This document shows positions 3,479-7,019 of a DNA stretch of 7,224 nucleotides, piece after piece. The stretch comes from Promethearchaeia archaeon. Its GTDB lineage: Archaea; Asgardarchaeota; Lokiarchaeia; Sigyniarchaeales; SOKP01. The stretch lies in NCBI GenBank assembly GCA_046497275.1, contig JAWOFX010000153.1, positions 1 to 7,224 on the forward strand, read 5' to 3'. Made by a program: the position numbers and the translations under genes. The notes beneath the pieces are model-generated. The model had not been told where the DNA came from, did no database searches, and saw nothing but the letters and a program-made list of their open reading frames with translations. How positions within the stretch are numbered: the stretch's first letter is position 1; every line of letters begins with the position of its first letter.

Positions 3479-3516
3479 CTATATATTTTTATTTTTTCAC
3501 TTTTATATATTTTTTT
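3479..3516 (+). promoter_or_regulatory. T-rich terminator of the thiolase operon combined with a TATA box (TTTATATA, 3502-3509) for the M28 gene
   Basis: T-tracts follow the DUF35 stop. The TTTATATA octamer predicts a start site near 3532, downstream of the track's TTG start at 3515. Confidence 0.5.
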
Positions 3517-3544
3517 GATAATTTTAGCAAATTATATTATTACG

Positions 3545-4705
3545 GTGTTTTTAATAAAGAAAAAAGTAGCTCTCTTTGTCATTCTTGTAATTTTTATTAC
3601 TGGAGGAATTTTCATTATAGTGTATAATTTACTTTCTCCCTCAAAATTAATAGCAAATAATTTGGATATAGACCTTCAATATAATGCGGGAAATTCTTAT
3701 ATCTATATCAAGAATCAAACGATGGATATTGGTAATAGAATCCCCGGAACAAATAAAAGTAAGGAATGCATCCGGTTTTTTATTTCTAAATTTCATGAGA
3801 TTGATTCCAATTTCTCATATTATTATCATAATTTTTCTGTATTAGGAGTTAATTGTTCAAATATTTTATTCAAATTAAATAAAGAAAAAGAACATATCAT
3901 CATTTTAGGAGCGCATTTCGATTCCAGAGCAAGAGCTACTAAAGATAGTGGGAATATAAATCAACCCGTACCAGGGGCAAATGATGGAGCAAGCGGCTGC
4001 GCAGCTTTAATCGAACTTGCAAGAATTTTTTATAGCAAAAGGAATAATCTAAGTGCTCAAATTTGGTTTCTCTTTTTTGATGCTGAAGATCAAGGTATTG
4101 ATGAAAGTTATGGGATATATGGATGGGATTGGTGTGAAGGCTCAAAACGATTTGTTAATCAACTCGATAATTTTTATAACTCTAATGATGAAATTATTGA
4201 TTGCATGATTCTTTTAGATATGATTGGAGGGACAGGATTAGAATTTATCAATGAACAGTATTCTACCTCTTCATTACTTGATGAGATTTTTGTTGTTGGA
4301 CGCGCTTTGGGCTATACTCACGCATTTCCTAGTAATCCCACTGTCAACTCAATCATAGATGATCATAAAGCATTTGTTGATGCTAACATTCCATCTGCGG
4401 ATCTAATAATAAATTTCTGGAATAATCCCTCTTGGCCATTCCACCATACTTTAAATGATACAATTAATCATATCTCTAATGAAAGTTTAACTGCTACAGG
4501 GAAAACAATTGAACAATTTGTGTATAATAATTATCTTGATGTACCGTGGAATACTTACCGGGGGAATTTTCCTTGGACCTCAGATAAAAACCTTTTGAAT
4601 ACTGAGATTATATTTCAAATCTTGATTTTAATAGGATTTGTCTCCGTTGGAATTATCATTTATTTGGTTTATGAACACCAAAAGAGTAAATCTGCAAATT
4701 TATGA
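3545..4705 (+). CDS. Membrane-anchored M28-family zinc enzyme, type II glutaminyl-peptide cyclotransferase-like (~386 aa; start uncertain, GTG 3545 preferred over TTG 3515)
   Basis: M28 motifs GAHFDSR, GANDGASG, FFDAEDQG, WCEGS, LLDMIGG, IIDDH and FHHT. N-terminal KKK plus TM segment, C-terminal TM segment, and eight N-X-S/T sequons between them. The M28 call is firm; QC activity is an inference. Confidence 0.85.
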   Translation: MFLIKKKVALFVILVIFITGGIFIIVYNLLSPSKLIANNLDIDLQYNAGNSYIYIKNQTMDIGNRIPGTNKSKECIRFFISKFHEIDSNFSYYYHNFSVLGVNCSNILFKLNKEKEHIIILGAHFDSRARATKDSGNINQPVPGANDGASGCAALIELARIFYSKRNNLSAQIWFLFFDAEDQGIDESYGIYGWDWCEGSKRFVNQLDNFYNSNDEIIDCMILLDMIGGTGLEFINEQYSTSSLLDEIFVVGRALGYTHAFPSNPTVNSIIDDHKAFVDANIPSADLIINFWNNPSWPFHHTLNDTINHISNESLTATGKTIEQFVYNNYLDVPWNTYRGNFPWTSDKNLLNTEIIFQILILIGFVSVGIIIYLVYEHQKSKSANL

Positions 4706-4820
4706 TATAATAACTCCCAATAGATTTTCAAGGAATTTTTATCTAACTTTTAATATGTATAACGAAACTTATTTTTCAGATCATATTTTTTTAATAATAA
4801 TTGAAAAATTTTGAACTAAA

Positions 4821-5471
4821 ATGGAAAGTACTTCTAAAAAAAAACCCTCCTCAACATCCAAAGAACCTCGTTCTAAGAAAAAAATCATTATTTCAGTAAT
4901 AGTTATTATTCTTGCTATCTCTTCACCTTTTCTAATATATTGGATCCTTCAGTTGTCTTTAAAAACGAGCTCTCCCATGGTTGTGGTCGTATCTGGATCC
5001 ATGGAACCAACTTTATCAAGGGGTGATCTCTTGTTTCTATACGGGAAGGATCCCGCGGATATTAGAAATGGAACTGCATTAGAAAAAAATGGAGATATTA
5101 TCGTATTTGATGCTCATGGATATTGGCCTCTTCCCCCTGCTGAACCCGTTGTCCATCGAGTGATTGATAAAAGATTTGAAAATGGAACATGGTGGTTTAA
5201 AACTAAAGGAGATGATAACACTATAGAAGATCCTTGGATACCGGAGAATCAAATATTCGGAGTTGTAGTTGGTGTTATCCCTTATATAGGTTGGGTGAAA
5301 ATATTTTTCACAGAGTCTGGGTTGTTAATTCCTATCATTATTATCATATTTGGAATTCTAATCATAAGCTTGATTTCCGATGTTATGAAAGAATCAAAAG
5401 AGAAACAACAATCTAAAAATGAAGACTTTTCTGATTCCAATCATACAAAAGCAGAAAAATTCACAAAATAG
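4821..5471 (+). CDS. sec11: Signal peptidase I, ER/archaeal type (S26B, Sec11/SPC18-like), 216 aa
   Basis: SPMVVVVSGSMEPTLSRGDLLFL (catalytic Ser), PVVHRV (catalytic His), TKGDDN and IPYIGWV, with TM segments on both sides of the catalytic domain. These motifs closely follow eukaryotic Sec11. Confidence 0.95.
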   Translation: MESTSKKKPSSTSKEPRSKKKIIISVIVIILAISSPFLIYWILQLSLKTSSPMVVVVSGSMEPTLSRGDLLFLYGKDPADIRNGTALEKNGDIIVFDAHGYWPLPPAEPVVHRVIDKRFENGTWWFKTKGDDNTIEDPWIPENQIFGVVVGVIPYIGWVKIFFTESGLLIPIIIIIFGILIISLISDVMKESKEKQQSKNEDFSDSNHTKAEKFTK

Positions 5472-5567: not shown

Positions 5568-5739
5568 TCTTTCAGTTTATTTAAATTACCCATATTATAT
5601 TTTTATATGATAAGGAAATTATCGTAATTGAAATACACCCGAATTAATTACGAAAAACTGTAAGATACACACTACAGTAAAGCAAAATAGATATTCAAAA
5701 AAAAATTCAAACCAATACAAACAACAGAGGTAAAATATT

Positions 5740-6018
5740 ATGGCAAAAGATGAAAATGCTGTATATGTTGGTCGCAGGCCCACAATGAATTATGTAATGG
5801 CGACAATGATGATTCTCAATAAAGGAGAGAATTGTGTCGTCAAAGCAAGAGGAAGAGCAATCTCTCATGCAGTAGATGTTTGCGAAATTTTACGAAACAG
5901 ATTTTTAAAAGGAACTGAATACGAAGATATTAAACTCAGCACCGAAACTTTAGAAGGGGAGAACGGTCAAAGCAACAACGTGAGCAGCATAGAGATAACA
6001 TTAAAGCCTCCAGAGTAA
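5740..6018 (+). CDS. albA: DNA/RNA-binding protein Alba (Sac10b family), 92 aa
   Basis: VYVG..P.MNYV, VKARGRAIS.AVDV.EI.RNRFL and VSSIEI.L are all Alba1 signatures. Strong SD GAGGT 8 nt upstream. Confidence 0.96.
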   Translation: MAKDENAVYVGRRPTMNYVMATMMILNKGENCVVKARGRAISHAVDVCEILRNRFLKGTEYEDIKLSTETLEGENGQSNNVSSIEITLKPPE

Positions 6019-6166: not shown

Positions 6167-6174
6167 TTTAAATA
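6167..6174 (+). promoter_or_regulatory. TATA box of the small secreted-peptide gene
   Basis: Canonical archaeal TTTAAATA 47 nt upstream of the ATG at 6221, predicting a start site near 6197-6200. The BRE match is weak. Confidence 0.55.
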
Positions 6175-6193: not shown

Positions 6194-6215
6194 ATACCAA
6201 TAAGATAATTGGTAT
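6194..6215. promoter_or_regulatory. Perfect palindrome ATACCAAT-N6-ATTGGTAT (operator or 5'-UTR hairpin)
   Basis: Arms at 6194-6201 and 6208-6215 are exact reverse complements. The element spans the predicted start site and the SD-like GGTATGA. Confidence 0.6.
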
Positions 6216-6220
6216 GAATC

Positions 6221-6331
6221 ATGAAGAAAAAAACTATTGCAATATTAGCCTTAATGCTGGTTGTAGCGTATGGGTTAAGTTTGGCAACAGCAGGAGTAAG
6301 TTATCCTGGCTGCTCAGAAAGTGGACCCTAA
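6221..6331 (+). CDS. Small secreted-peptide precursor, 36 aa: MKKKTIAILALMLVVAYGLSLATA|GVSYPGCSESGP (absent from the ORF track)
   Basis: Basic n-region (MKKK), hydrophobic h-region (IAILALMLVVAYGL) and A-T-A SPase I site. G+C is 45/111 (~41%) against ~20-21% in 100-nt samples of each flank (hand count). It has its own TATA box and terminator. Confidence 0.75.
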   Translation: MKKKTIAILALMLVVAYGLSLATAGVSYPGCSESGP

Positions 6332-6332
6332 G

Positions 6333-6374
6333 CTGATATAATAAATCAGTGGTATAATTTTCTTTTTTTATTTT
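6333..6374 (+). terminator. Hairpin plus T-tract terminator after the peptide gene
   Basis: CTGAT(6333-6337)-ataataa-ATCAG(6345-6349), then ttttcttttttta-tttta. Confidence 0.6.
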
Positions 6375-6737
6375 ATTAAAAAGCTACTTTCTCTTTTAAT
6401 TTTGAATGAATGAATTAAACCCAACTAGATATAACCCATAAATAAAGATAAATCTAACTTATTAAGTTTTTATCTGAATGTATCAACTTAAATAAGCATA
6501 TCTCTTTATATATTTTCCAAAATAAATACATATAGCCTAAAAACCTTAAAATTAAATTCCGTTTATAAAAAAAGTGCTAAAAGTATACTAACAATTCAAA
6601 CAATTAATTTTTAATAGAATAGAGTTGAATCTGTCGCGCTTCTTGATATTTTTTAAATATAGAGGAATCACCTATTTTATCCTCTCTTTATATTTTTCTT
6701 TAGAAAAATAGTAAAATGCTTTTATTCATCAGTTTGT

Positions 6738-6824: not shown

Positions 6825-7019
6825 ATGGCGAAGAAAAAAGTTGAACCGCTTTATGTAAAATCAAAAATTAGAGATTATCTCAAATCGAAGGGCTGCAACA
6901 CAAGCTCAGGAGTCATCGATGGAGAGAAACTTAATACTCGTATAATCGAGATACTTGACAGAGCAGTAGACCGAGCGAAGAAAAACGGCAGAAAGACGGT
7001 TAAACCGAGGGACATATAA
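6825..7019 (+). CDS. Histone-fold protein, short-alpha3 class (face-to-face / Bd0055-like prokaryotic histone), 64 aa
   Basis: RAKKNGRKTVKPRDI contains the L2 R-x-T-x-x-x-x-D motif (R56, T58, D63), and the protein ends one residue after the Asp. LYVKSKIRDYLKSKGCNTS forms alpha1/L1. 18 K+R versus 8 D+E. Confidence 0.85.
   Translation: MAKKKVEPLYVKSKIRDYLKSKGCNTSSGVIDGEKLNTRIIEILDRAVDRAKKNGRKTVKPRDI

Follow-up and report, generated by a model that had tools for sequence, protein, structure and literature searches.

The open reading frame (ORF) at positions 6221–6331 on the forward strand of the window, i.e., the entire 7,224-nt contig of a 3.85-Mb genome with 30% GC (G000), is a genuine stand-alone gene. 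It exceeds what chance would produce, because intact homologues occur in about 35 genomes, dN/dS is about 0.15, and promoter, SD, and terminator signals were kept. Its 36 codons plus the stop codon TAA encode the 36-residue protein MKKKTIAILALMLVVAYGLSLATAGVSYPGCSESGP. The most likely reading of the sequence, which we hold tentatively, is that the 36-mer is exported and cut at ATA|G, and that a 12-residue, Pro-capped peptide acts outside the cell. This would be a weaker form of the model put forward in the original prediction, namely a precursor of a secreted peptide signal resembling Bacillus Phr and phage AimP; the ORF coordinates and the translation given there were reproduced exactly. No prior description of the micro-protein family was found in the full-text literature and, as far as this literature shows, the family, which belongs to the kind of small proteins with an export signal, is apparently undescribed. 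What the original prediction lacked was a second copy in G000 and a Cys-less subfamily beside a candidate regulator or receptor.

A lone 36-codon ORF in AT-rich DNA is weak evidence for a gene, and short ORFs are common. The ORF might have arisen by chance, or its gene-like GC island might reflect a small structured RNA. However, searches of the window returned no Rfam match (E ≤ 1) and no tRNA (ARAGORN), an SD is conserved at the right distance from the start codon, and the homologues are substituted codon by codon, with differences between certain paralogues being exclusively synonymous. Judged by sequence comparison, this substitution pattern effectively refutes the artefact reading, the probability of which is marginal. 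The GC island noted in the original prediction was also observed (0.43 over 6250–6349, as compared to 0.20–0.22 in the flanks); it represents the ordinary coding-versus-spacer contrast of this genome, since the neighbouring alba gene also reaches 0.35–0.39. The 36-mer matched no Pfam family, and a feature search in the ESM-Atlas returned unnamed clusters only, with values of 0.81–0.84 corresponding to chance level. A predicted complex of four copies scored 0.02, which is evidence neither way.

To collect homologues, relatives were first searched with the protein, and 400 genomes of the phylum were then searched with a profile. Intact frames of 36–40 aa were recovered from about 35 genomes, all of one Asgard order (families f1, f2, and f4), with one to four copies per genome; no credible homologue was found outside this order among the 400 genomes. 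One homologue carries the NCBI label ‘hypothetical protein’ (Promethearchaeota archaeon), and a protein search started from a 40-aa homologue returned four ‘hypothetical’ proteins. The second copy in G000, located on contig C136, shares 82% nucleotide identity with the window copy and reads MKKKTIAVLVLMLVVAYGLSMATTGVSMLMPGCSESGP. The family consensus can be given in short as MxxxKK-hydrophobic-AYGLSxAxAGVSxPGCxExxP and more fully as MxxxKK-x-I-xx-LALLLxVAYGLSMATAGVSxPGCxExxP. Residues K4, G25, and P29 are invariant in the family alignment; conservation reaches 90% or more for L9, L13, G18, V26, S27, G30, and C31, and the YGLS motif (Y17, G18, L19, and S20) inside the hydrophobic segment is nearly invariant.

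Nei–Gojobori estimates computed over 41 distinct DNA sequences gave a dN/dS of 0.15 overall, 0.14 for the leader, and 0.15 for the tail. Paralogues residing in the same genome and encoding identical peptides differ at 10–20 of 99 nt, every difference being synonymous, which excludes both RNA-level constraint and recent gene conversion. Within the subfamily carrying the PGC motif, identity amounts to 0.66 for the tail versus 0.53 for the leader, making the tail the most conserved part; it is near-constant over about ten genera. The original prediction had proposed conservation across Asgard genomes as a check, and had considered stops or frameshifts in close relatives, as well as an origin as the broken 5′ stub of a long secreted-protein gene, as possible alternatives. 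The frame was found intact in about 35 genomes and under purifying selection, with an in-frame stop in one of about 60 copies, and the window ORF is a complete gene rather than a stub, because every homologue terminates at the same point. Two family copies are possibly decaying: the one at L054:3708–3821 (minus strand; G014) has an in-frame TAA within the hydrophobic segment, and the one in L033 (G005b) lacks ATG, GTG, and TTG alike where its start would be expected. Within G000, a six-frame scan found the motif G[VI][SAT]x(1-3)PGC in two micro-ORFs only, and a loose genome-wide micro-ORF screen (K-rich start, transmembrane segment, TATA box, and T-tract) convincingly recovered the two paralogues alone, so that the search for further signal-peptide micro-ORFs suggested by the original prediction yielded nothing convincing beyond them.

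The gene is equipped with signals of its own. A TATA box, TTTAAATA, lies at 6167–6174 (+), 47–54 nt before the ATG. In the 49 homologous loci, the exact 8-mer occurs 38 times on the sense strand 40–100 nt before the start, and only three times on the minus strand in the same span. The SD-like sequence TGGTAT (6210–6215, +) places its GGT 8–10 nt before the ATG, and GGTG, GGAG, or AGTGA is present 6–12 nt before the start in most homologous loci. Beyond the stop codon, a small hairpin (CTGAT-7 nt-ATCAG; 6333–6349, +) and the T-tract TTTTCTTTTTTT of the archaeal terminator type (6358–6369, +) were read in the sequence. A T-tract follows 20–45 nt past the stop in nearly all loci, and a post-stop hairpin in several of them without sequence conservation. 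In the 5′ leader, the 8+8 palindrome ATACCAAT..ATTGGTAT (6194–6215, +) would form an RNA hairpin pairing the SD-like GGT, with an MFE of −7.8 kcal/mol and a z of −2.85. Leader hairpins with z < −1.5 were detected in 15 of the 52 loci, comprising genus-level relatives and some others; the SD-pairing hairpin is a feature of a lineage and not a rule of the family. Thus, the TATA box, the palindrome, and the terminator of the original prediction were all located, the first and the last being kept at most loci, and the conserved TATA box, SD, and T-tract support its stand-alone transcription unit. A scan for sigma-70 promoters and intrinsic terminators is inapplicable to archaea and was uninformative for the window.

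A leader that sequesters the SD is also encountered among type I toxins (Hok, Fst, and TisB), and the micro-protein might be viewed as a small toxin that damages membranes, either holin-like or part of a type I toxin–antitoxin system, with its translation checked by this leader. Small size, hydrophobicity, several copies per genome, and varied intergenic sites are in line with such a role, as is the hairpin pairing the SD in the window. However, the leader hairpin is not universal, the opposite strand carries no positioned TATA box and hence no positioned antisense promoter in the 49 loci, the predicted extracytoplasmic tail shows a strong conservation between genera that type I toxins typically lack, and the orthologous site beside alba is stable in three genera. 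A toxin is therefore regarded as very improbable, and it is counted, together with the artefact discussed above and the modified peptide discussed below, among the minor readings.

Contigs from RNA libraries matched the micro-gene at 100% identity in salt-lake metatranscriptomes from two studies, one of them covering 6202–6418 and the second representing an adapter-flanked 100-nt insert at 6227–6326. These contigs document the presence of the micro-gene in RNA libraries, which is weaker than proof of transcription: their depth over the micro-gene does not exceed that of some pieces of spacer, and DNA carry-over or read-through is possible. Contig depths and uncovered stretches are unfit to rank expression or to show its absence. 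Over alba (5590–6015) and a 64-aa histone-fold gene (6831–7013), the RNA-contig word depth reaches approximately 100–400, far above that of the spacers, and the contigs end near the gene borders.

The protein itself shows the n–h–c layout of an export signal, MKKK / IAILALMLVVAYGL / SLATA. The n-region MKKK (6221–6232, +), including the invariant K4, is placed on the cytoplasmic side by the positive-inside rule. The hydrophobic segment T5–A24 (6233–6292, +), composed of the h-region and the small-residue c-region SLATA, could act as a signal that is cleaved off or as a signal anchor. The 12-residue tail GVSYPGCSESGP (6293–6328, +), with G25 and P29 invariant, is predicted to lie outside the cell under cleavage and anchoring alike. 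At A-x-A|G (A24|G25 in the window protein), the −3/−1 rule is obeyed by 32 of the 40 distinct family sequences; the other eight have Met at −1 (four sequences) or Trp or Phe at −3 (four, in the most distant family). Position −2 varies freely among the members, K and E included, which counts for cleavage because these residues are unfavourable inside a transmembrane helix; the invariance of G25 counts in the same direction. Furthermore, in 11 of 17 members of a Cys-less sister subfamily, the apolar run is ended by K, R, Q, or H after only 13–16 residues, corresponding to the length of a signal peptide and not of an anchor. The signal-peptide-like N-terminus and the conserved 12-residue C-terminal part recognized in the original prediction are therefore well founded, and cleavage at A|G appears somewhat probable from the sequences. 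Consistent with a free peptide, a C-terminal Pro was noted family-wide. Two other kinds of signal were considered and rejected: a lipobox or general sorting signal, as Pro occupies −2 in the S-Y-P-G-C of the tail and the motif is confined to two micro-ORFs, and a class III (type IV pilin-like) signal, as KK is followed by T, A, V, L, I, or S and at no time by a conserved G/A.

The main competing explanation proposes that the product remains in the membrane as an uncleaved N-in/C-out anchor, where it would modulate some membrane protein or complex in the manner of small bacterial proteins of the MgrB, AcrZ, or CydX type. Contact would be made through a small-residue helix face (A16xxxS20xxxA24 and G18xxxA22) and the outer tail of 10–12 residues with its conserved Cys, and the giant wHTH-like protein encoded beside several relatives would simply regulate it. 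This explains the data nearly as well as release does. The window protein offers a transmembrane-competent stretch of 24 uncharged residues, with a KD 19-window score of 2.32 and a summed insertion energy of approximately −1.3 kcal/mol; if uncut, the segment would sit stably in the membrane. Purifying selection is equal in leader and tail and the YGLS motif is conserved, both unusual for a disposable signal peptide. Moreover, the aromatic residues at the putative −3 position of the most distant members resemble an interfacial aromatic belt, the Met at −1 in four sequences points in the same direction, and several copies with a consensus promoter would suit an abundant structural component. On the other hand, K or E at −2 in some members and the interruption of the apolar run in most sister members are awkward for a transmembrane helix, and neighbours at 54 loci include no conserved membrane partner. 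Retention of the protein as an uncleaved anchor is thus rated from the sequences as a real but lesser possibility, and the same holds for the membrane-resident micro-protein as a whole.

Small membrane regulators of bacteria with a single span, such as MgrB (47 aa), AcrZ, CydX, and KdpF, resemble the family in size, in the predicted N-in single hydrophobic helix, in the short outer tail, and in being encoded by stand-alone genes, and MgrB additionally shares a conserved Cys in the outer tail. In contrast to them, the micro-family shows no sequence similarity to these proteins and is not linked to any sensor kinase or transporter, and most of its members possess an AxA-type site.

For the exported peptide, the course of events would be as follows. 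The stand-alone, strongly promoted micro-gene would yield a 36-aa product. Since a chain of 36 residues fits entirely in the ribosomal tunnel and is set free before the hydrophobic segment is exposed, we infer that membrane insertion is post-translational, the product reaching the membrane after translation. The MKKK end would be kept in the cytoplasm and the tail placed outside the cell, where signal peptidase I would cut at ATA|G and release the Pro-capped peptide to act extracellularly. The data show the gene itself, its conservation, its promoter, SD, and terminator signals, its presence in RNA libraries, and the linkage of relatives to a giant protein; topology, cleavage, release, and any signalling role are putative.

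Another possibility is a RiPP-like precursor, in which a Ser27–Cys31 thioether is formed or the C-terminus is activated by the ThiF/E1-like enzyme encoded upstream of the paralogue. The G000 paralogue on C136 is flanked by this gene and by a 1,216-aa gene. The ThiF/E1-family gene (L002:1763–2758, minus strand; ThiF E 1e-46) encodes 331 aa, about 70 of which form an N-terminal extension, and ends 113 nt upstream of the paralogue; the same adjacency was found in G002 and G176. In G024 (L039:3423–5009, +) and, equivalently, in L057 of G030, a gene for a B12-binding radical-SAM (rSAM) protein lies directly upstream of the micro-gene; these two genomes belong to different families, and an Obg-like GTPase gene precedes the rSAM gene. 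In addition, S27 and C31 are nearly invariant in the PGC subfamily, tandem arrays of three copies exist in G240 and G236, and the S-x-P-G-C spacing in the tail resembles a class I lanthipeptide ring. The TPGC ring of nisin or epidermin is such a ring motif. However, ThiF adjoins the micro-gene in only 3 of the 54 loci and the B12-rSAM gene in 2 of 54; the neighbours vary, and most loci, the window included, lack a candidate modifying enzyme, which is unlike the clustering of RiPP precursors with their modifying enzymes. No LanB, LanC, or LanM-type gene is located nearby, and the Cys is absent from the sister subfamily. RiPP leaders are not typically of the hydrophobic Sec type, so that the leader of the micro-protein is atypical as well. 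A modified peptide is consequently considered improbable.

The neighbour that stands out is the 1,216-aa giant protein encoded beside the G000 paralogue (L028:3082–6729, minus strand, on C136), which is predicted to be soluble. Its sequence had no match in Pfam, NCBIfam, or the PDB sequences; no helix–turn–helix (HTH) was recognized at sequence level, nor any TPR or RRNPP Pfam family. An AlphaFold2 model was built from 21 sequences, with a mean pLDDT of 74. With this model as the query, Foldseek matched archaeal entries in the AFDB clusters whose names denote transcriptional regulators of the winged-helix, Lrp/AsnC, or ArsR kind (probability 1.0, E 1e-7 to 1e-5). In the ESM-Atlas shape search, residues of approximately 136–771 aligned to archaeal clusters of 350–415 aa with TM values by hit of 0.68–0.74, and in four of six such rows, 81–93% of the members carry HTH_AsnC-type and/or HTH_24 domains; the feature search agreed weakly (0.79). 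Foldseek matches to RND transporters in the PDB had low TM values and were dismissed as spurious. The predicted fold thus resembles archaeal HTH_AsnC/wHTH regulators.

The giant protein is encoded in 118 of the 135 genomes of the taxonomic family, in one to five copies, several of which contain in-frame stops. PGC-type micro-genes adjoin it in four genera (G000, G022, G010/G183, and G014). A shared pattern of presence and absence of both genes was rejected, the giant protein also occurring in genera in which no PGC micro-gene was found. Beside other copies of the giant gene, weak profile matches led to the Cys-less sister subfamily, whose members comprise 36–40 aa with a Gly-rich tail ending in Pro (for example, MKLQNKIKVSLAFLTAISIGLKMLVAGLAVNAGEGGP) and form tandem arrays of up to three. 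Arrays of three Cys-less 37-aa micro-ORFs were located at L079:4834–5519 (+; G240) and L101:588–1330 (−; G236). Their members are divergent, end in GEGGP, GGGGP, or GEGTP, and in many cases seem to start with TTG; for both arrays, transcription runs in the direction opposite to that of a giant-gene copy and away from it. With a broader profile, the micro-ORF family was detected in 40 of the 135 genomes, and a comparison of coordinates showed that, at some 19 loci in at least seven genera, micro-ORFs and a copy of the giant gene are no more than about 750 nt apart. Four arrangements were distinguished, namely divergent from the giant 5′ end (at least eight loci, with a spacer of 120–280 nt), tandem upstream, downstream, and convergent, and G012 and G240 each contain two separate modules.

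A quick maximum-likelihood tree was computed from 41 copies of the giant protein. Seven of the nine copies with an adjoining Cys-less micro-ORF fall into one clade (SH-aLRT 100, three genera), and the other paralogue clades of the same three genera have none. This clustering indicates an old, paralogue-specific linkage and not co-evolution, because labels of this sort will cluster through relatedness by itself. The site beside the soluble protein of about 1200 aa would be the older genomic home of the family, from which the window copy, having no giant-protein neighbour, would have dispersed. Based on the modelled fold, the giant protein is the best candidate for a regulator of the micro-genes or a sensor of their product, and the module formed by both is possibly new.

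The divergent arrangement with its short spacer resembles that of Lrp/AsnC (FFRP) regulators with divergent targets, and the fold searches with the modelled giant protein likewise led to HTH_AsnC/HTH_24-bearing archaeal proteins. Unlike Lrp, the giant protein is eight times larger and has no HTH match at sequence level, and its binding of DNA or a ligand is putative. A further comparison concerns the RRNPP systems (Rap-Phr, NprR-NprX, PlcR-PapR, and arbitrium AimR-AimP). Their pro-peptides likewise start from a pre-peptide of about 40 aa with a mostly Sec-type signal and a short C-terminal active part, and members of the micro-family often adjoin a soluble cytoplasmic protein that, according to its model, may bind DNA. 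The differences are considerable: the host is an archaeon, the neighbour of about 1200 aa is predicted to have an HTH_AsnC/wHTH-like fold instead of being a TPR-type receptor, the tail is conserved and not diversified, and the window copy lacks a receptor-like neighbour. In RRNPP signalling, the released mature peptide is taken up again by Opp and bound by the receptor; for the micro-family, secretion, processing, and re-import would be putative.

A complete Lokiarchaeia-type signalling module can be sketched from the models, in which a Sec-exported, Pro-capped peptide of 11–12 residues, released from precursors of 36–40 aa present in one to four copies, would be sensed directly or indirectly by the giant Lrp/AsnC-like protein, which in turn would control the micro-genes. 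We consider this unlikely; if true, it would represent an archaeal counterpart of RRNPP quorum sensing assembled from unrelated parts. The signalling idea of the original prediction thus gains a candidate receptor or regulator beside relatives, the second G000 copy included, and loses on other points: this partner is not of the RRNPP type, the window copy is an orphan, and the tail is conserved. The missing diversification of the tail across genera speaks against behaviour like that of the Phr and AimP pheromones.

To our knowledge, roles have been established for very few archaeal micro-proteins, and no ribosomal peptide signal was found in the full-text literature for the archaea closest to eukaryotes. 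The present family is small enough for synthesis, and conserved enough to be functional, and a candidate for its partner can be named, namely the regulator-like giant protein that almost all genomes of the taxonomic family encode. Two questions are thereby opened in Lokiarchaeia enrichment cultures, namely the export of small peptides and their role. If the product is a membrane protein only, it would constitute a conserved, highly promoted, and lineage-specific component of the Asgard envelope that is annotated at best as ‘hypothetical protein’.

Neighbour clustering at the 54 loci gave a varied picture with no universal operon partner. In the window, the micro-gene is preceded by alba (5740–6018; Pfam Alba E 2e-17) and followed by the histone-fold gene (64 aa; 6825–7019). 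As stated in the original prediction, neither a receptor-like neighbour nor a candidate modifying enzyme was recognized in the window. The signal peptidase I gene (4821–5471), which contains an SGSMEPTL box and matches Pfam S26 with E 2.7e-4, just under the cut-off, does end 750 nt upstream of the micro-gene as described there; as a link to the micro-gene it loses its force, being a housekeeping gene that is separated from the micro-gene by alba. Six genomes from three genera share the gene order thiolase–DUF35–[M28 peptidase]–signal peptidase I–alba–micro-gene, indicating that the window copy occupies an old, vertically kept locus; it is a dispersed orphan paralogue maintained beside alba in several genera. 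At the contig end (7114–7224, −), an ORF runs off the sequence, comprising the C-terminal 36 residues of a protein. The pair of M28-peptidase and signal peptidase I genes (window 3515–5471) upstream of alba is syntenic in G000, G002, G008, and G020, and the same block without the M28 gene is present in G010 and G183.
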